Below are positions 199-10,796 of a stretch of DNA of 64,000 bases, piece after piece. Origin of the DNA: a bacterium (GTDB lineage Bacteria; Acidobacteriota; HRBIN11; JAKEFK01); the NCBI GenBank assembly GCA_022616075.1, contig JAKEFK010000024.1, forward strand, positions 572 to 64,571. Direction: 5' to 3'. The translations under genes were made by a program, and so were the position numbers. The notes beneath the pieces were generated by a model. It made no database searches. It was not told the DNA's origin and saw only the letters and a program-made list of their open reading frames with translations. Position 1 is the first letter of the stretch. Each line of letters begins with the position of its first letter.

Positions 199-238
199 AA
201 AATAAAAAACCCGCTTCCTCTTCAGGGAGGACAGCGGG
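199..238 (-). terminator. Intrinsic-terminator-like hairpin plus U-tract in the leader, directly upstream of the reductase start (candidate attenuator)
   Basis: Minus-strand CCCGCTGTCCTCC-CTGAA-GAGGAAGCGGG followed by TTTTTTATTTT. An equivalent hairpin is present in copy 2 (4398..4436). Confidence 0.45.
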
Positions 239-294
239 TTAAGAATTTCAGATTTTTAAGGGATTGCTAGAACCGGCGCGTGTGCCGTCTAACG

Positions 295-360
295 GATTTC
301 AAAACCTGCTGCCCTGCCCCTACGAAAGGGGCGGATACAGCAGCAATGTGTTTTGAAATC
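295..360 (-). promoter_or_regulatory. 66-nt extended, near-perfect hairpin in the leader RNA
   Basis: gatttcaaaac...ctgctgccctgcccct-loop-aggggc...cagcag...gttttgaaatc. Stem arms are conserved in copy 2 and the loop differs. Confidence 0.45.
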
Positions 361-385
361 TTTTGTATTCATGAAGACAATTTGA

Positions 386-414
386 ACCTAAGTCAATTGT
401 CCTGAATTGTCAAG
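386..414 (-). promoter_or_regulatory. Sigma70-like promoter (TTGACA-17-TAGGTT) driving the structured leader
   Basis: -35 and -10 hexamers with 17 bp spacing on the minus strand. Confidence 0.3.
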
Positions 415-2459: not shown

Positions 2460-3483
2460 ATGAAACTGGTTGAATTACGCGAACGTTACGCAATTGATAA
2501 CCTCATGGTTGTAGAGGGTCCGGTACCGGAAGTACGTGCGGGCGAAGTGTTGATACAAATCAACGCATGTTCCCTGAATTATCGAGATTTGCTGATTGTG
2601 AGGGGTTATGGACGTTGGAAAAAAACCTTGCCGTTCGTGCCACTGTCTGATGCGGCTGGAGAAGTTGTGGAGGTTGGACCTGGAGTTTCAAGAGTTGCAA
2701 TTGGTGACAGTGTTGCTGCGATATTCGTTCCGGCGTGGTTAGATGGAGATCTTTCGGAGGAAAATGATGGGCCTGCCATGGGGGAAATGCTCCCAATACA
2801 GGGTTCTTCCAGAGGAAGTGCTGGTTCGAGTCCCGGAGCACCTGAATGATACGGAAGCGGCAACGCTGCCGTGCGCGGCCGTAACGGCATGGAACGCCTT
2901 GTCCGGAGAAGGTTCGCCGAAGCCCGGGGAGACGGTAGTTGTACTGGGTTCCGGGGGAGTATCGTTGTTTTCGCTTCAATTTGCTCGCCTCAAAAAAGCG
3001 CGTGTTATTGCATGCTCCCGGAGCGAAGCCAAGATAACCCAACTTTTAAAACTGGGTGCAGATCACGCAATCAACTCTGGAGTTTCACCTGGATGGCCTG
3101 AAGTTGTGATGCAATTAACGGAGGGCCGCGGGGCCGATTACATTATAGATGTTGTTGGCAGGCTCGCGGATTCCGTTCATGCACTCCGGTTCGGAGGTCT
3201 CATTAGCGTCATCGGAATGCTCGATCGATTTTCGACTGAAATCGATCCGGCTGTAATAATGGCAAAAAAGGCGCGTCTCCGCGGGCTCCAGGTTGGCTCA
3301 AGGGAAATGTTCGAAGCCATGAATCGCGCCCTTTTCCGCCACCGAATCCGTCCTGTCATCGATCGCGTTTACAACCTGACAGCCGTGCAGGCCGCCTACC
3401 GCAGACTTGAAAGCGGTGATCAGTTCGGCAAAGTATGCATCCGGCTCTGGCCTGATACTAAAGAAAAAAGCGACTTTAACTAA
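2460..3483 (+). CDS. MDR-superfamily NAD(P)H:quinone oxidoreductase/alcohol dehydrogenase, frameshifted
   Basis: The N-terminal half (2460..2849) and C-terminal half (2743..3483, motifs VVVLGSGGVS and EAATLPCAAVTAWNAL) lie in different frames. The shift falls at a G5 run (2779..2783). Confidence 0.75.
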
Positions 3484-3496
3484 GGAAATAGGAATC

Positions 3497-4246
3497 ATGA
3501 GATTCGTCGGAAAAATAGCTCTCGTGACGGGGGCCGGCAAAGGAATAGGGAAGGCTACAGCTCTCAAGCTGGCATCGGAAGGATCTGATGTCGCTGTACA
3601 CTATCTTCGTTCATCGGAACATGCCGAATCAGTTTGTGAGAAAATTCGTGCGCTGGGAGCTCGAGCCTTGGCGGTTCAGGCAGATATTGCCGACAGAGAA
3701 ACCGTAAATAAGATGGTAGCTTGCGTCACTGCGGAGCTTGGCCCGATCCAATTGCTGGTAAACAATGCGGGGGATATAGGGGATATCGATTTCCATCAAT
3801 TGCAGCCTGAGCATTGGGATCGGATTGTTGCAATAAACCTCACAGGCCCCTTCAATCTTATCTGGGCAGTGAAGGAGGGGATGCTTGCTCGACAATTCGG
3901 CAGGATCGTAAATATTTCCTCTATTGCGGCCTTAGCCGTTCGACCGAATCTTCTTCCGTACTCAGCTGCAAAAGCCGGGGTGATCTCATTGACAAAATCC
4001 TGTTGCGCTCCGTTTGCTCAAAAGAATATCAGAATCAATTCCGTCGCACCGGGCGCAATTGATACGGATATGTTGCGTGAGCTTTCCCCACAAACAGTAG
4101 AGCAATTGAAGTCCGCGACTCCGTTGGGCCGTTTGGGCGAACCGGAGGAAATCGCAAATGTTGTCGCGTTTCTTCTCAGTGAGGAATCAAGTTACATGAC
4201 GGGCTCTACAATCATCGTCAGCGGTGGCAGAATGCTGATTCCGTAA
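3497..4246 (+). CDS. SDR-family oxidoreductase (FabG-like)
   Basis: Glycine-rich motif GKIALVTGAGKGIGKA, NNAG, and catalytic YSAAK. RBS-like GGAAATAGGA precedes the ATG at 3497. Confidence 0.85.
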   Translation: MRFVGKIALVTGAGKGIGKATALKLASEGSDVAVHYLRSSEHAESVCEKIRALGARALAVQADIADRETVNKMVACVTAELGPIQLLVNNAGDIGDIDFHQLQPEHWDRIVAINLTGPFNLIWAVKEGMLARQFGRIVNISSIAALAVRPNLLPYSAAKAGVISLTKSCCAPFAQKNIRINSVAPGAIDTDMLRELSPQTVEQLKSATPLGRLGEPEEIANVVAFLLSEESSYMTGSTIIVSGGRMLIP

Positions 4247-4342
4247 TCATGCCATGCTGATTATCGAGCCTTCATAGATATGGCGTCTTTCTGCTGAACC
4301 AAACCGGATTTTGGTGTCAGAGTGACGTATGGACTGCCGCGA

Positions 4343-4649
4343 ACTTGTTCCAGTGTTAGATCATCCTCTGCCAATTTCACTCCAAAAACTTTCGCCCAAA
4401 ATAAAACCCCGCCTCCTCCTCAGAGAGGACAGCGGGTTAGGAATTTCAGATTTTTAAGGGATTGCTAGAACCGGCGGCTGCGCCATCTAACGGATTTCAA
4501 AACCTGCTGCCCTGCCCCTATGATAGGGGCGAATACAGGAGCAATTTGTTTTGAAATCTTTTGTATTCATGAAGATAATTTGAACCTAAGTCAATTGTCC
4601 TGAATTGTCAAGCCGTTAGCGATCAATACTTATCATGGATAAGATGAAA
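4343..4649. repeat. About 307 bp repeat, copy 2: orphan duplicate of the reductase 5' leader, downstream of the SDR gene
   Basis: Same hairpins as copy 1. On the minus strand it encodes FWAKVFGVKLAEDDLTLEQV and then diverges and stops. Confidence 0.8.
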
Positions 4650-4705
4650 TTATCAAATGAGGTGACGCTCATCTAGGAAATTCTTCCTTTCAGATCCTTA
4701 CAAAC

Positions 4706-5313
4706 TCAGCGGCTCTGAGATGTTTTCTGAAAGTAATATCCACCTTCGTAGAAGCCAACTACATTTCCCATTGAATCAAAGACAAAACTAAGAATTTCGC
4801 CAGGAGAATGCGGACCGGACATTCTGAATCTGTCTTTCCCTTCAGGCGTAAGCTCGGAATCGGAGTTTGGATACTCTACCCAACTCAATATCAACTGATT
4901 GTCCTTTATAGCGAGGTCCATACTAAAAGAGAGAACCTCGGATCGATATCGGCCGATGAATTTTCCGAAATCTTTTGACGTTTGGAGGGAAACCGATTGT
5001 TGTTTAGAACGGTGGATCCGATCAAAAATCGGAATTAGCAATCCAGGACTTCTCACAAGTGTTTCGTGGCCACTCCTTTGTATCCATATTCGTTAATATT
5101 ACGATTCCCAGTTTTGATTCCGGGACGAAAGCAATCATCGAATCATACCCGGGAGCGTCGCCTGCGTGACCAACTAGAGTGCGGTCGCTTTTTCGAAAAA
5201 GGGCGAACCCAATTCCGTAACCGAAACTCCAATTGCTATTCATGAACTGAGGCGTCCGCATTTCTCTCAGACTATGAGCTGATAATACTTCAGAATCGTC
5301 TTTGAACTGGCAC
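4706..5313 (-). pseudogene. Second class-C beta-lactamase-like gene, C-terminal part, separated from its N-terminal part by an inversion
   Basis: Encodes QFKDDSEVLSAHSLREMRTPQF...GHAGDAPGYDSMIAFVPESKLGIVILTNMD plus the C-terminal extension. It aligns to residues about 270-516 of the 625..2175 protein. Confidence 0.7.
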
Positions 5314-6258
5314 ACATTTACGCCAAAAAAACTTTGGAAGCCGGCTTTACGTCGGTTCGTGATCTTGGAGCCAGCGAACTGATCGACGTTGCCTTGAAAA
5401 AAGCGATTAACAATGGGAGGATCCCCGGTCCCCGCATGTTCGTTGCCACTCTCACCTTGGGCGCCACAGGTAGTCACGGAGATTGGGGGACCGGCTTTCC
5501 CCATACCTTCGTATGGAAGGATTGAGTAACACTGCGGATGGGGTTGAAGAGATCAGGAAAGCTATTCGACTTCAGATTAAGTACGGAGCCGATCAAATTA
5601 AATTTGCAGCCACTGGTGGGGTATTTAGTGAAGCGGGATCGGCCGAGGGTATGCAGTACTCTCCTAAGGAGATGAGAGCCATCGTGGATGAGGCGCATCT
5701 CTGGGGCAAGAGAGTTGCGGCGCACGCACACGGAACGCAAGGAATAAAAACTGCTGTGGAGGCAGGAGTCGATTCCATTGAACATGGAAGTCTTATAGAT
5801 GAAGAAGGAATTGAGATGATGAAGAAACGTGGCACTTATCTCATTCCCACAATTTTTGCGGCGGATGCTGTTGAAATTTACGGTAAGGATTGGAATCTGC
5901 CTGAAAGTATCCTCGCAAGAGGGCGGTCTATCAACAAAGAAAACGTGAAAACTACAGAAAGGCAATCAAGGCGGGTGTCAAGGTTGGGTTCGGATCAGAC
6001 GCCACCGTATTTCCCCACGGAATGAACGCTGTCGAATTTTCTCATCTAGTCGAAGTGGGAATGACGCCAATGCAGATAATCCAGGCCGCTACAGTTGTTA
6101 ATTCAGAACTGCTCGGTAAGAGCGACGAATTAGGATCCATCGAACCAGGAAAAATATGCTGATTTCATCGCCGTTTATGGAGATCCATTGAAGAATATCG
6201 AGGCGCTCAATGATGTACGATTTGTTATGAAAGGCGGCGTTATTTATAAATCGCCGTA
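5314..6258 (+). pseudogene. Amidohydrolase-family (metal-dependent hydrolase) gene body, detached from its N-terminus and multiply frameshifted
   Basis: LEAGFTSVRDLG...AAHAHGTQGI...GVDSIEHGS...GSDATVFPHGM...YKSP*. Lesions include an 8-nt insertion near 5940 and an extra A in an A5 run near 6150. Confidence 0.7.
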
Positions 6259-6321
6259 GACAGAAGTTCATCTTTACGAATCGAATTCTTTAACTCATTC
6301 GGAAATAAATGAGCTAAGATA

Positions 6322-7213
6322 GTGGTATTTTTGATGATTCCTCGTGGCGCATCATTGATTAAACGGACAAGAAATTCCCTTTTCATCTGTTTCTTTCTAC
6401 TCCTTCACTTCGAAACCGGCCAGAGTCCATCTGCGGCAGCGATGAAGGATGATCCTGAAATAAAAGCTGCCCTGCAAATTGTTGACGAAATCATCACCAG
6501 ACGCCATTCTGTGGCGGAAATATAGGACCTCAGCCGCAATTATTTACGGCGAGAAGGTGATATGGGCAAAGGGATATGGTTATTCCAATATTGAAGAAAA
6601 ACAGCCGGCCACCCCTGATACGATTTATCGAATCGCATCTATCACTAAAGTGTTTACTGCGACAATGCTCATGCAATTGCGAGATGAAGGCAAGCTACAG
6701 CTTGATGAGTCTCTAGTGAGCCATATCCCCAATCTTAAGATTCGCAACCGATTCTCGAGTTCCGCGCTCCTTTCGTTCAGGCAGGTCGCATCACACTCTT
6801 CAGGTCTGCAGCGGGAACCACCCGATATTCAAAAATACTGGGACACTCTTATTTTTCTTCCATTGAACTCATGATGCCTTCCATTATTGAGAAGGCTGAA
6901 ATGGCAACGCCACCGTTAACCTGCTTGAGCTACTCGAATCTGGCTGTCGCCTTGATGGGTCACGCCCTGGAGAGAATCGCAGGTCTGGACTATGAGACAT
7001 ACGTGACCGAGCGAATTACTCAACCTCTAGACATGACAGATACTTTTTTTCATCCTTCCCAGAAAGTCCAAAACAGGGTAGCAATTCCCTACACAAAGAC
7101 TGCGGGAACGGTATCAAAACAGAAGCTAATCTATTCGAGTCTGGGAGGTCTACAGCCCGCGGGAGGACTCTTTTCAACGGTAACGGATCTGGGAAGATTC
7201 ATTTCACTCCACA
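6322..7213 (+). pseudogene. Second class-C beta-lactamase-like gene, N-terminal part (signal peptide, SITK, YSN) with at least two frameshifts
   Basis: Three consecutive ORFs in different frames (6322..6525, 6479..6874, 6871..7320) together align to the N-terminal about 270 aa of a class-C enzyme. The match ends abruptly after ISLHKN at 7213. Confidence 0.7.
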
Positions 7214-7557
7214 AGAATTGCGCGATCGATTGGAGACATCCTGAACAATTCGGCTTCGTAGTTCTCAGCCTGTTCTGTGATATGCGTGTGGGCATCTATC
7301 AAGCCGGGCAGCACAGTTAATTGGGATAGATCAATTCTTCGTGCACTAACCGGAACCTGAACATGATCCGCCGTACCAACTGCTTCAATCGGTTCCCCTT
7401 TTACTAAAATCAGCTGATTATCAATCACTTTTCCAGTTTTGACGTCAATCATCCTACCGGCCTGGAGAACGGAATAACTAACTTCTTCTGCTTGCAAGTT
7501 TGCGAAAAGGGTGGCGAAAAGTGAAAAAACCACGATGAAGAATTGGAGTAATTTCAC
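7214..7557 (-). pseudogene. Amidohydrolase N-terminus (signal peptide plus HxH metal site DAHTH), now separated from the gene body at 5314..6258
   Basis: MKLLQFFIVVFSLFATLFAN...LPGLIDAHTHITEQ. The ORF terminates inside repeat R2 at the inversion junction. Confidence 0.65.
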
Positions 7558-7650
7558 AGTCTGTCCTCCTGTCCTTTTCTAGACTATCCGGAAGCATTGC
7601 TGATGGTATTGGACAAAAAAGATTGATTGGACAAAAAGCACAATCGGTGT
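7498..7650. repeat. About 150 bp repeat R1, copy A (upstream region plus signal-peptide codons MKLLQFFIVVFSLFATLFAN)
   Basis: Near-identical to 9815..9965. Confidence 0.8.
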
Positions 7651-7669: not shown

Positions 7670-9874
7670 TCAACCGGGTCCGAAGCCCAGAGGCGAAACA
7701 TTCAAGGCCGGTTCAGGCCCCGGCCCAAGGTGGCGCTCGAACCAGTCTAGCACCCGCTGCAGGACGTCCACCTGATGGGCTCGCTCGCTGATGCCATGCG
7801 GCTCGCGTGGGTAGACGACCATCTCGGTCTCTGTACCGACGAGCCTCAGAGCATGATAAAACTCCCACCCTTGGCCTACAGGAGCCAAGTCGTCCGCTTC
7901 GCCGTGCAAGACGAGAGTAGGCGTACGGCAGTTTTTGACATGCGCCAGCGGGGAGCGGTTCCAATAGGCATCGGGTCGATCGATGTGAGTACCGAGGAAG
8001 TAGGGCGAGAAGAACGACGGTGTAAACGTGCCGCTCCCATTGGAGCTCGCCAAATTCGACAGTCCGGCGCTCATGACGGCTGCCTTGAAGCGGTTGGTTT
8101 GAGTAACCGCCCAGGCGGTCATGTAGCCTCCGTACGACCCGCCCCCGATCCCGAGCCGGTGCGGATCGGCGATCTTCTGATCGATCAAATGGTCCAGGCC
8201 GTCCATGATGTCCGTGAAGTCTCCGCCTCCCCAGTCGTCGCGGTTCGCCTCGGCGAATCTCCAGCCCTGGCCGCTTGATCCACGAGGATTCGGCAGCAGA
8301 ACCACGAAGCCGTGAGACGCCAGGAGTTGGCCCCATTCCCACGCTGAGCCATGCCAACCTGCCCACCATGCCCACTCCGGCCCGCCGTGCACTTGCACGA
8401 CTGTCGGCTGCGGGTTTCCCTTTCGGAAACCCGGCGGGGTGATCAGCACACCATGGATTATACGGCCGTCCTGGCTGCTCTTCCACGATATTTCCTCACT
8501 CTCACCGAGCCGCCAGGAGGCGGCCTGCGGATGGAGAGAGGTAAGACGGCGACCGGGCTCGCCGATACGCAGCACCCACACATCATCGGGCGACTGGCCC
8601 GTACCGCTGACGTACGCCAGCACACGGGAATCGGCGCTCGCGCTGAATCTGCGGCCAGGCCACAGGAAGGTCTGAGCCTCGCCTAGCACCTGTACCGCTT
8701 CCGTCGAGACCTTCACGCGCAATAGGCGCGTCCGCGCAGCCTCGAAGCTCTGGAATAGCAGATGCTCAGAATCCGAATCCCATTCTGCGCCCCAGTCTCC
8801 CGTCCAGAGCGAGCCCGGGTAGTCGTCCAGCAGATAGCGCGGCCGACCGCCGGCGGCGGGAACCAAAGCCACCCGGATGGAAATGTTGGCGGGAGATGGG
8901 GTCGAGAAAGCGATGGTGTGTCCATCCGGCGACCAGCGGACTATCTGTTCCGAATAGGCAATCGCTTCGCTCAGGGTGCGCGCCACTTGGCCCCCCTGCC
9001 TTCGGATCACAACCAGTCTGGAGGGCTGATAGTGGACGTCTTCCATGCGAGGCGTCTTTGCGGTCACGATTGCGATCTCCTCTCCACCGGGCGACCAGTC
9101 AAAATCGCTGATCTCGAGACGCTGTGGTGATACCGGTTCGGCATGACCGTCGACCAAACGCACGACGTACAGTCGCGAGTACCTGTAATTATGGTCAGCG
9201 TACCGTGCATCGTCGCCATCCTTTGATTTTTTCACCTCTTCTTCGGAGGGAGCTTCGCGCAGCGTAAAGGCGATCATCGAGCCGTCTGGTGACCAGCGAA
9301 ATCGCAGTACCTCTCCCCGGAGCGCGGTGACCGGCTCGGCCTCACCACCGTCCAGACGCAGCAGCCAGAGCTGGGCCCCGGCTCCGCTCAGTGCCCCCTG
9401 TGGACACGGGCGATCGGAGAGGAAGGCGAGCCGCCTGCCTTCTGGGGACCAGCGAGGCGTGGTGTCGTTGGCTAGATGCGACGTCAACCTGCGAGCCGGT
9501 GCGTTGCCGTCGGTTGGGACGATCCAGATATCGGCCTTGGGGAGCGGATCAGGGCGTGCCGAATCGACCGCCTCACGTACCACGAAGGCGATCCGCAAGC
9601 CGTCTGGTGAGACTTGGGCGTCGCTGACCTCGCGGATGGCGACCAGATCCTCGGGGGTTACAGAGCGCTTCGCCTCGCTGATGGTGTCCGAAGACGCTGA
9701 TGTAAAGCCTGCTTCCAAAGTTCTTTGGCGTATGTGTGTGCAAAAATTGCGCGATCGATTGGAGACATTCTGAACATTTCGGTTTTCGTAGTTCCCCGCC
9801 TGGTCTGTTTGTCCGTTTGCGAAAAGGGTGGCGAAAAGTGAAAAAACCACGATGAAGAATTGGAGTAATTTCAC
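7670..9874 (-). CDS. S9-family serine peptidase (prolyl oligopeptidase/acylaminoacyl-peptidase-like) with N-terminal beta-propeller; GC-rich chimeric gene
   Basis: GGSYGG nucleophile elbow, and C-terminal Asp and His motifs (HGEADDLAP, REPHGI). The body is about 65% GC against about 48% in the flanks. The first about 60 codons come from the amidohydrolase leader (R1-R2-R3). Confidence 0.85.
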   Translation of the reverse strand: MKLLQFFIVVFSLFATLFANGQTDQAGNYENRNVQNVSNRSRNFCTHIRQRTLEAGFTSASSDTISEAKRSVTPEDLVAIREVSDAQVSPDGLRIAFVVREAVDSARPDPLPKADIWIVPTDGNAPARRLTSHLANDTTPRWSPEGRRLAFLSDRPCPQGALSGAGAQLWLLRLDGGEAEPVTALRGEVLRFRWSPDGSMIAFTLREAPSEEEVKKSKDGDDARYADHNYRYSRLYVVRLVDGHAEPVSPQRLEISDFDWSPGGEEIAIVTAKTPRMEDVHYQPSRLVVIRRQGGQVARTLSEAIAYSEQIVRWSPDGHTIAFSTPSPANISIRVALVPAAGGRPRYLLDDYPGSLWTGDWGAEWDSDSEHLLFQSFEAARTRLLRVKVSTEAVQVLGEAQTFLWPGRRFSASADSRVLAYVSGTGQSPDDVWVLRIGEPGRRLTSLHPQAASWRLGESEEISWKSSQDGRIIHGVLITPPGFRKGNPQPTVVQVHGGPEWAWWAGWHGSAWEWGQLLASHGFVVLLPNPRGSSGQGWRFAEANRDDWGGGDFTDIMDGLDHLIDQKIADPHRLGIGGGSYGGYMTAWAVTQTNRFKAAVMSAGLSNLASSNGSGTFTPSFFSPYFLGTHIDRPDAYWNRSPLAHVKNCRTPTLVLHGEADDLAPVGQGWEFYHALRLVGTETEMVVYPREPHGISERAHQVDVLQRVLDWFERHLGPGPEPALNVSPLGFGPG

Positions 9875-9965
9875 TGTCTGTCCTCCTGTCCTCTTCTAGA
9901 CTATCTGAAGCGGGGTTGATGGTATTGGACAAAGAAGATTGCTTGGACAAAAAGCACAATCGGTG
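9815..9965. repeat. About 150 bp repeat R1, copy B, fused onto the S9 peptidase gene; followed by R2/R3 at 9700..9800
   Basis: Near-identical to 7498..7650. The adjacent 9700..9800 matches 7215..7265 (R2) and 5314..5345 (R3, opposite orientation). Confidence 0.8.
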
Positions 9966-9986
9966 TTCGACCGCAGGAGCTACCAC

Positions 9987-10796
9987 TTACGAACAAAGAG
10001 TGCGATATTGCGCCGGCGTCAGTCCTGTCATGCGCTTGAAGACTCTACAAAAATGGCTTTGATCATAGAAACCGACATCAGCGGCGATCTTAGCCAGAGA
10101 TGGGTTGATGCGCGAAGAGAGAAGTTCGCAGGCAGCTTGAATGCGACGCTTCCGTAAATAAGCGCCTATCGAGTGGCCGTAAACTTTCCGAAACGATCGC
10201 GAGAGCCGCGTAGAGTTTACACCAGATCGGCGCGACAGTTCCTCGAGTTTGAGCGGACTTGCATAATTTGAATCAATGATCTCTTTTGTCATAACAAGCC
10301 ATGGCTGAAGCGTCGATGTCTTCATGCAGAAGGTCTCTCGAGAAACTTGTCCAAGCATCTCAAGAATGATCCCCTCTATGATTAACGGATGGGTTTTCCC
10401 TCCGTATCGTAATTCCTGTACTAGATTCGCGGCAAGCCAGGACAGACGACCACCGCGAAAAATAATCGATTCTCCAGTTTTTTGTAGAAGCTCAGCGAGG
10501 CAATGTGCCCATTGTTCACCAACTTCCACATGCAAGACGCGAGCTCCCCTGGAAGAAATCCGGTGGGAGTGTTCTTCGCTGGAAGGATGAAATCCAACCG
10601 TCCATGGGTTCCATTTAATGTTTTTGCGCCCATAAGTATCGACGAATGCACCTTTCAACAGTATCCCAATGGAAACGCAGGAATGAGAGTGAAGGGGTAT
10701 CACCAAATCCGGAGGATAAAAGTATTCGATCAATCGAAATCCGGTAAGCTGTCTATCGTCCAAGGTTTCTCGTTTATTATCGCATCCTGAACTCAT
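9987..10796 (-). CDS. AraC-family transcriptional regulator (cupin sensor plus dual HTH)
   Basis: C-terminal AraC HTH signature (YLRKRRIQAACELL...IAADVGFYDQSHFCRVFKRMTGLTPAQYR). Confidence 0.8.
   Translation of the reverse strand: MSSGCDNKRETLDDRQLTGFRLIEYFYPPDLVIPLHSHSCVSIGILLKGAFVDTYGRKNIKWNPWTVGFHPSSEEHSHRISSRGARVLHVEVGEQWAHCLAELLQKTGESIIFRGGRLSWLAANLVQELRYGGKTHPLIIEGIILEMLGQVSRETFCMKTSTLQPWLVMTKEIIDSNYASPLKLEELSRRSGVNSTRLSRSFRKVYGHSIGAYLRKRRIQAACELLSSRINPSLAKIAADVGFYDQSHFCRVFKRMTGLTPAQYRTLCS

Follow-up and report, generated by a model that had tools for sequence, protein, structure and literature searches.

A probable cysteine-sensing leader-peptide attenuator upstream of a predicted sulfite reductase gene in an acidobacterial contig

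Leader-peptide attenuation is textbook knowledge for Trp, His, Leu, Thr, Ile/Val and Phe. In the trp, his, leu, thr, ilv and pheA leaders of Escherichia coli an upstream open reading frame (uORF) contains tandem codons for the amino acid in which the pathway ends, the RNA can form 1:2, 2:3 and 3:4 helices, the stop codon of the uORF lets an unstalled ribosome disable the antiterminator, and the terminator is located just before the first structural gene. The cysteine version of this mechanism has rarely been described. Here we analyse a leader at positions 199-413 on the minus strand of a 64,000-nt stretch of contig JAKEFK010000024.1 (assembly GCA_022616075.1, an acidobacterium of the HRBIN11 lineage); the whole stretch is referred to as the window, and coordinates are positions within it. 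The leader, which precedes the 5′ end of a gene that we assign below to the assimilatory sulfite reductases, resembles the E. coli leaders in all of these respects. It differs from classical attenuators in that the codons specify cysteine, the target is a sulfite reductase, the uORF lacks a Shine-Dalgarno (SD) sequence and begins a few nucleotides from the predicted 5′ end of the mRNA, and the leader has no sequence relation to the leader families in Rfam. We consider it likely that this leader is a ribosome-mediated transcription attenuator that senses charged tRNA-Cys and controls the sulfite reductase gene.

Cysteine codons in leader peptides have been reported in several settings. A conserved Cys-rich small ORF was located upstream of mycobacterial nirA/Msmeg_4527 by ribosome profiling (Shell et al. 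2015, PMC4633059), and polycysteine leaderless small ORFs (sORFs) were shown experimentally to be cysteine-responsive translational attenuators (Canestrari et al. 2020, bioRxiv 10.1101/834739), in a study that also noted the lack of any earlier description of uORF-mediated attenuation for cysteine. Like the mycobacterial sORFs, the uORF in the window is unannotated, contains a Cys run and is situated at, or close to, the predicted 5′ end of an mRNA for cysteine metabolism, and the proposed sensor is again the speed of the ribosome on Cys codons; the nirA/Msmeg_4527 case also has a target of the same enzyme family. The mycobacterial system, however, is translational, with a Cys tract that pairs with the SD region and no intrinsic terminator, whereas the leader in the window has a terminator and an antiterminator, leaves the SD free and occurs in a 48% GC, not actinobacterial-like, context. 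The element thus joins the target of the mycobacterial case, sulfite reductase, to the classical terminator/antiterminator mechanism in a 48% GC organism.

Leaders of cysteinyl-tRNA synthetase genes provide a second comparison. The uORFC-8-2 motif of Rhodobacterales, upstream of cysS, joins a uORF containing Cys codons to a terminator (Brewer et al. 2021, PMC8632094), while cysS of Deinococcus deserti has a leaderless Cys leader peptide (PMC4007540). As in the window, tandem Cys codons are located inside the first of two stems and the leader finishes with a U run, and these cysS leaders were interpreted as ribosome-mediated attenuation sensing Cys-tRNA. They differ from the leader described here in their target (cysteinyl-tRNA synthetase rather than sulfite reductase/cysH) and taxa, and show no detectable sequence similarity to it. 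Finally, Cys-run leader peptides were predicted upstream of actinobacterial cys operons, where neither a terminator nor any other part of an attenuator was found (Seliverstov et al. 2005, PMC1262725); Cys runs are common to those leaders and to the window, but only the window has the full set of elements.

Read on the minus strand, the leader opens with a −35-like hexamer, TTGACA (413-408), which is identical in a partial duplicate of the region (copy B, see below), and a −10-like hexamer, TAGGTT (390-385), 17 nt further on. A 66-nt hairpin (hairpin 1, 360-295) follows, with stems of 11, 8 and 6 bp that include GCCCCU/AGGGGC and an energy of −34.0 kcal/mol when folded alone. After a 56-nt stretch comes an intrinsic terminator (240-199), consisting of a stem-loop at 240-210 (arms CCCGCUgUCCUC...GAGGAAGCGGG; −20.0 kcal/mol) and a U tract, TTTTTTATTTT, at 209-199. 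The reductase gene has two candidate start codons, GTG 181 and TTG 175, of which TTG 175 agrees with orthologues that begin ‘MAD..’; an SD sequence, GGAG (184-181), is present 5 nt 5′ of this TTG and lies outside any stable helix. An earlier note on this DNA had described promoter, 66-nt hairpin, spacer, terminator and start codon in this order, which can be read directly in the sequence, while some details require revision. Both promoter hexamers are present, but the −10 matches only three of the six consensus positions (T1, A2 and T6). The spacer, put at about 55 nt, is not featureless, as it holds a small hairpin (hairpin 2, 293-266; −10.8 kcal/mol) that overlaps the stop codon region of the uORF and would lie within the antiterminator loop. 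The GC-rich terminator hairpin exists as described, although the tract of 9-11 U residues is U6-A-U4 and not uninterrupted. A consensus scan reported neither the promoter nor the terminator, because of the weak −10 and the bulged terminator stem, respectively.

Transcription is predicted to start near position 378, approximately 6 nt before the ATG of a 27-codon ORF, MNTKDFKTHCCCIRPFRRGRAAGFEIR, which extends from ATG 372-370, 13 nt after the −10 hexamer, to TAG 291-289, just past hairpin 1. Codons 10-12 of this ORF, TGC TGC TGT (345-337), specify three consecutive Cys residues, lie in the 5′ arm of hairpin 1 and form the proposed sensing site. The earlier note had overlooked this ORF and its Cys codons; in our view the sensor is most probably this leader peptide during its translation, and not an RNA bound by a protein or a ligand. 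Runs of three Cys codons occur nine times in 128 kb (both strands of the window), and it is unlikely, though not impossible, that chance would place one in this leader of 170 nt with the correct strand and the frame of a promoter-proximal ATG. The argument consequently rests mainly on RNA structure and on comparison between loci. Another CCC run, at 18397-18389 on the minus strand and antisense to a 125-amino-acid plus-strand ORF that looks RidA-like by eye, was set aside as a chance occurrence.

The free leader RNA folds into hairpin 1, hairpin 2 and the terminator, and the minimum free energy of the 216-nt leader, −79.3 kcal/mol, compares with −55.8 ± 4.6 kcal/mol for dinucleotide shuffles (z = −5.1; none of 200 as good). 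To mimic a stalled ribosome at the decision point, 30 nt around the Cys codons were masked and the RNA was cut before the 3′ arm of the terminator. In this state segment 2 (320-298, GGGGCAGGGCAGCAGGUUUUGAA), the 3′ arm of hairpin 1, acts as the 5′ strand of an antiterminator by pairing with segment 3 (245-224, UUCUUAACCCGCUGUCCUCCCU), which contains the entire terminator 5′ arm. The pairing comprises 4 + 8 + 4 + 3 bp (19 bp) and takes up 11 of 12 nucleotides in the terminator 5′ arm. The alternative-structure analysis suggested in the earlier note therefore yields an antiterminator that excludes the terminator. The energy of the segment 2:3 duplex is −29.4 kcal/mol, a value equalled by 11 of 18280 26-nt windows across the 64 kb, among which the 5′ arm of hairpin 1 and the copy B counterparts would be expected, and by 2 of 5000 shuffles of the target. 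When the arms were shuffled, the complementarity of the antiterminator was reached in 5 of 1000 trials. The terminator 5′ arm and the arm of hairpin 1 that contains the Cys codons are alike in sequence (both have GCUGU..CC.CCCU), explaining why both can pair with the same G-rich strand. The energies of the three mutually exclusive helices are −34.0 kcal/mol for 1:2, approximately −26 kcal/mol net for 2:3 (−37.1 kcal/mol with the enclosed hairpin 2) and −20.0 kcal/mol for 3:4, an order that fits what an attenuator needs.

These structures suggest how the leader would operate. Transcription would begin about 6 nt upstream of the 27-codon ORF (372-289), whose three consecutive Cys codons (345-337) sit in the 5′ arm of hairpin 1. 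With no ribosome over the Cys codons, hairpin 1 would form and sequester segment 2. When cysteine is ample the ribosome would reach the UAG at 291-289 and either cover the 3′ part of segment 2 or let hairpin 1 re-form; in both cases the terminator (240-199) would fold and transcription would halt 14 nt short of the reductase gene's ribosome-binding site. The geometry of the leader, in which the uORF stop codon is 4 nt past segment 2, is the reason to expect that an unstalled ribosome permits termination. When Cys-tRNA is scarce the ribosome would stall at the Cys codons and keep the 5′ arm of hairpin 1 open, and the freed 3′ arm (320-298) could then pair with 245-224 ahead of synthesis of the terminator 3′ arm. 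With the terminator blocked, RNA polymerase would read into the reductase gene. A leader ORF, tandem codons for the amino acid of the pathway, an intrinsic terminator, a computationally identified antiterminator and conservation of the codons in orthologues (see below) are all features of this locus.

The identity of the regulated gene is central to this proposal. Only its 5′ end, 58 codons at 175-1 on the minus strand (MADEDLTLEQVLKKNSRERLKKEKPPLEILSDLPMLIQRGYESMAEEDIVRLQWYGLY), is contained in the window, the open frame running off the edge. A word-indexed protein search with this 58-amino-acid N-terminus returned no match, while an exhaustive HMMER search identified 126 proteins with the N-terminal signature LVLKRN.xERLK.EK.PL....LP.LI..GYE...EED.VRLQW(Y/W)GLYHDKPK. 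Full-length members of this subfamily score best against NirA-type models, yet fall under every equivalog cut-off. In one member (P0027) the reductase is joined to a MoaD/SAMP-like domain and to CysH, and two others have a MoaD/ThiS-like GG tail. The closest solved relative of the subfamily is the Mycobacterium tuberculosis NirA (1ZJ8), an enzyme identified in the literature as a sulfite reductase. Scanning metagenomes with the aligned reductase N-termini yielded 80 loci. Sufficient sequence past the gene is available in 41 of them, and in 39 of these a CysH homologue is encoded on the same strand 1.5-1.9 kb past the reductase start. The cysH product of one of these loci, L012, scores 286 bits against an NCBIfam cut-off of 154 for phosphoadenylyl-sulfate reductase, and the operon of L097 runs on into sirohaem synthase. 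As cysH is the next gene in nearly all of these loci and homologues are fused to CysH, the regulated gene is, on the evidence of its family and of the gene neighbourhood in orthologous loci, an assimilatory sulfite reductase of the sir-cysH type and not a nitrite reductase, and it probably opens a sir-cysH operon for sulfate assimilation. Sulfate assimilation yields cysteine as its final product, the amino acid that a run of Cys codons should report on.

The earlier note had assigned the gene to nitrate or nitrite assimilation, an assignment at odds with the cysH neighbours and CysH fusions, and had proposed that a nitrate/nitrite-responsive ANTAR-type (NasR/NasT-like) protein antiterminates a nitrite reductase gene. 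A terminator that separates promoter and ORF and is preceded by hairpins would suit such control, and the top NCBIfam model for the 58-amino-acid fragment is indeed ‘ferredoxin-nitrite reductase’, although the score of 25 bits is below the cut-off of 594. ANTAR targets are characterized by two short hairpins with hexaloops that have A at position 1 and G at position 4 (A-x-x-G-x-x), the second hairpin overlapping the terminator. This signature is absent from the leader, whose loops read UUCGU (5 nt), ACACGC and CCUGAA. Copy B does not preserve the hairpin 2 loop, and hairpin 2 itself stops 25 nt short of the terminator without overlapping it. A tblastn search with an ANTAR segment, a weak test, found no match within the 64-kb window. 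With orthologues that adjoin cysH rather than nitrate genes, the pathway points to sulfur, and ANTAR-mediated antitermination has a negligible probability.

If the Cys codons are the sensor they should recur upstream of orthologous reductases, and this was evaluated in the 74 loci with at least 300 nt of upstream sequence, counting short ORFs of 6-70 codons. A uORF with two adjacent Cys codons was found on the sense strand in 22 of the 74 loci, compared with 1 on the reverse complement and 4.6 in shuffles; for three adjacent Cys codons the values were 9, 0 and 0.1, respectively. Examples are MMKSNIYNMNSACCLMQACCTGTVCLCKNYKNERQSLG in L013, MPSHLYSAMCCCRPW.. in L017, VSASAQIMCRCCLRRPIAG in L028, L031 and L043, MALRSFCMCICCPPRPMAG in L070, and ..(H/M)CCCRSRS.. 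in L020, L022, L027, L035, L038 and L047. Across orthologues the in-frame ATG and the run of Cys codons are kept, while sequence and fold vary. In many of the loci that lack a Cys uORF, a long ORF on the same strand stops no more than 100 nt before the gene, and sir is probably operon-internal there. An automatic scan located a hairpin and U-tract terminator within 350 nt upstream in 11 of the 22 Cys-uORF loci, and the distance from terminator to gene is 21-36 nt in window-like and MCCCRSRS-type leaders. The shuffled-arm complementarity was marginal in L013 (42/1000) and L014 (116/1000). Seven more loci with N-terminal homologues (L092-L098) contributed no additional leader of the window type; L096 is a further high-GC member with the uORF ..SFSCCCRPW.., and L092 is possibly a truncated case (..RCICSRRGH*).

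Two other arrangements among these relatives are worth recording. A high-GC clade (L017, L020, L022, L026, L027, L035, L038, L047 and L096) has uORFs of the type ..MCCCRSRS.. or ..CCCRPW.., followed by two conserved hairpins, a terminator (GGCCCGGG...CCCGGGCC-U-rich) that is separated from the gene by 21-25 nt, an SD sequence and a GTG start. In L097 (approximately 1270-1325), another high-GC relative, sir has no uORF and is preceded by a TTGACA-17-TACTAT promoter located 7 nt before the ATG and overlapping the palindrome TTGACAAAGATGACCTTGTCA. As it has no uORF, appears to be transcribed as a leaderless mRNA and has a promoter that overlaps a palindrome, the regulation of the L097 operon looks protein-based.

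Many other high-GC loci have short Cys uORFs 45-60 nt from the gene and no U-tract terminator, and resemble the mycobacterial type. The same logic and the same target gene family are documented in mycobacteria (PMC4633059; bioRxiv 10.1101/834739), and stalling at the Cys codons of the window might likewise act mainly by unmasking the reductase gene's ribosome-binding site. Its Cys tract, however, pairs with segment 2 (320-298) and not with the SD, which is free of any stable helix and downstream of a canonical hairpin and U6AU4 terminator, leaving translational attenuation of this kind only a slim chance in the window. The comparative data also bear on the view that the leader is a metabolite-binding riboswitch, responding for example to a sulfur compound, with hairpin 1 as aptamer and the terminator as expression platform. 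The strongly structured RNA (z = −5.1), the terminator and the alternative pairing would all suit a riboswitch. Hairpin 1, though, is a near-continuous helix, with no multi-helix junction or conserved pocket, and all that is kept across lineages, an ATG, a run of Cys codons and the logic of the terminator, is the pattern of a leader peptide and not of an aptamer. The comparison with Rfam proposed in the earlier note revealed no known family: no Rfam 15 covariance model reached its gathering threshold in the window, L012, L013, L017 or L038, and the relaxed matches in the window were noise (E at least 1.2), Trp_leader, whose cut-off is 41 bits, reaching 18 and covering the terminator alone. A riboswitch is thus very improbable.

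When the leader was compared with the 80 related loci by blastn and nhmmer, the only match was L012. This locus has a GC content of 60%, and its reductase shares 72% protein identity with the window gene. Its promoter, TTGACA-17-TATCTT, is 13 nt from the ATG of the uORF, a spacing equal to that of the window, and the uORF, MKTGGFQTRISFIASAGCMCCCMPVGGAREAAGFEATCMELNPI, contains a CMCCC run (..AGCMCCCMPVGG..). The base of its long hairpin, GAUUUCAAAC / GUUUUGAAG, matches that of hairpin 1, and its terminator, AACCCGCUGCCUUCCUCC-AGGA-GGGCGGCGGGUUUUUUAUUUUGG (AACCCGCUG...GGCGGGUUUUUUAUUUUGG), is near-identical to that of the window. In the stalled and cut fold the L012 antiterminator covers 12 of the 13 nt of the terminator 5′ arm, and its complementarity was reached in 12 of 1000 shuffled-arm trials. 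The L012 Cys codons are TGT and not TGC, and are positioned at the apex of hairpin 1 and not in the lower stem. Judged from this pair of leaders, what is conserved is the presence of Cys codons inside the first helix and not a nucleotide motif.

L012 is also informative about whether the leader exerts conditional control at all. The terminator could simply serve the upstream beta-lactamase-family gene, which is encoded on the same strand (625-2175), or the promoter, hairpins and terminator, which together specify an RNA of approximately 175 nt and were duplicated as a block, could constitute an independent small RNA gene, the Cys codons being a by-product of a GCUGCUG/CAGCAG stem. The terminator, however, is 387 nt past the stop codon of gene 625-2175, and the promoter intervenes. 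In L012 the upstream gene is divergent, so that the L012 terminator cannot belong to it, yet the homologous leader again precedes sir. The leader accompanies the reductase gene and not the upstream lactamase gene. Enrichment of Cys-run uORFs on the sense strand upstream of orthologous reductases, and antiterminator complementarity far above background, likewise argue against an unconditional role, to which we assign a small probability. The terminated leader RNA may nevertheless have an additional trans-acting role. The proposal in the earlier note that a terminator between promoter and ORF implies conditional read-through is consequently borne out, both by the antiterminator and by the association of the leader with the reductase gene.

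Attenuation by Cys-codon leader peptides may extend beyond the window and L012. On balance, and by a modest measure only, the data favour the view that Cys-codon leader peptides with intrinsic terminators represent a widespread attenuator family of the sir-cysH operon that is not annotated in Rfam, distributed over several unrelated, mostly uncultured lineages (36% to 70% GC) and seemingly re-invented with different folds. Within this proposed family, the type represented by the window and L012 would be one in which the terminator 5′ arm is a mimic of the tract of Cys codons (GCUGU...), both competing for one G-rich strand.

The window contains a second copy of the leader. A direct repeat of 308 nt, 143-450 and 4343-4648 on the minus strand, with 91-95% identity, extends from approximately 35 nt 5′ of the −35 hexamer to codon 12 of the reductase gene. 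Copy B (4343-4648) thus comprises the promoter, a uORF with Cys-Ser-Cys in place of the Cys run, the hairpins, the terminator and the first 12 reductase codons. Past codon 12 the sequence is unrelated, and the frame leaves the reductase and soon stops, from which we infer that copy B is a remnant. The five substitutions in hairpin 1 of copy B comprise two in the apical loop, two in internal loops and one, TGC to TCC, that breaks a stem pair; hairpin 2 is preserved through a C-G to U-G change, while its loop is not kept. The statement in the earlier note that the two copies keep the stems while the apical loops differ is therefore only roughly correct. A scan of contigs from representative genomes, a set that does not include the source genome, with the basal stems of the hairpin (GATTTCAAAAC-N30-60-GTTTTGAAATC) gave 10 matches, all unrelated chance palindromes. 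Upstream of the leader promoter, and centred approximately 60 nt 5′ of the predicted transcription start, is a perfect palindrome, CTTATC-CAT-GATAAG (445-431, minus strand), which is identical in the two copies and absent from L012, and which may be a candidate transcription-factor site acting on this promoter.

Several observations weigh against a cysteine-sensing attenuator. The uORF has no SD sequence and a predicted 5′ UTR of approximately 4-9 nt, which would necessitate near-leaderless initiation, a geometry that is the same in L012, and the −10 hexamer is weak (3/6). L012 is the single homologue of the leader at the nucleotide level. In copy B the middle Cys codon has become TCC (Ser) and four of the five substitutions in the uORF change an amino acid; copy B is, however, a remnant. 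In the high-GC MCCCRSRS clade, antiterminator complementarity was not above background. Past its first 58 codons the reductase gene, like the operon, is located outside the window. With the ribosome stalled, the equilibrium at the decision point favours the terminator state (−45.5 versus −41.7 kcal/mol), and the terminator has a pair probability of 0.98 in the full-length RNA. When only the Cys region was masked, the terminator persisted in the equilibrium fold, the antiterminator appearing solely in RNA cut as it would be during transcription. As equilibrium slightly favours the terminator, the choice between the two structures must be kinetic, as in other attenuators, and the attenuator model hinges on co-transcriptional folding that would be coupled to translation of the uORF.

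The 308-nt repeat flanks a 3.9-kb block that includes a gene of the beta-lactamase family, a zinc-dehydrogenase-like gene that is split, and an SDR-like gene, and the repeat could have originated by rearrangement or by recombination between diverged alleles. A 1.85-kb Logan contig that carries the upstream beta-lactamase gene ends inside the repeat. The region 2460-7560 is a cluster of apparently fragmented genes, most of whose family calls were made by eye: a dehydrogenase-like gene is split into 2460-2849 and 2743-3483, beta-lactamase-like pieces are located at 4706-5056, 5022-5504, 6479-6874 and 6871-7320, and amidohydrolase-like pieces at 5483-6025 and 7204-7557. These fragments represent either pseudogenes or assembly indels. 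A second duplicated 5′ end, 7487-7650 and 9804-9966, belongs to the minus-strand ORF 7204-7557 and the S9 peptidase gene 7670-9874, which have in common their upstream region and signal peptide, MKLLQFFIVVFSLFATLFAN, with 90-94% DNA identity. The G+C content is 0.61 at 8001-10000, compared with approximately 0.48 elsewhere, and this rise coincides with the S9 peptidase gene, which may have been acquired horizontally. An inverted repeat of 40 nt, 452-491 and 6230-6269 (AAAGGCGGCGTTATTTATAAATCGCCGTA...; 95% complementary), has one copy abutting the upstream boundary of the duplicated leader unit.

The analysis replaces nitrite reductase by sulfite reductase as the functional assignment of the gene, and it identifies an unannotated uORF with a Cys run, followed by a terminator, as a signature that is currently missed by annotation pipelines and by Rfam. 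The complete unit of promoter, uORF (CCC), antiterminator and terminator, which has relatives across numerous environmental lineages, provides a testable model in which sulfate assimilation would be tuned to the charging of Cys-tRNA without a protein regulator. If such attenuators do form a widespread family, the ‘Cys ribulon’ idea developed for mycobacteria would extend to control at the level of transcription, and well beyond the Actinobacteria.

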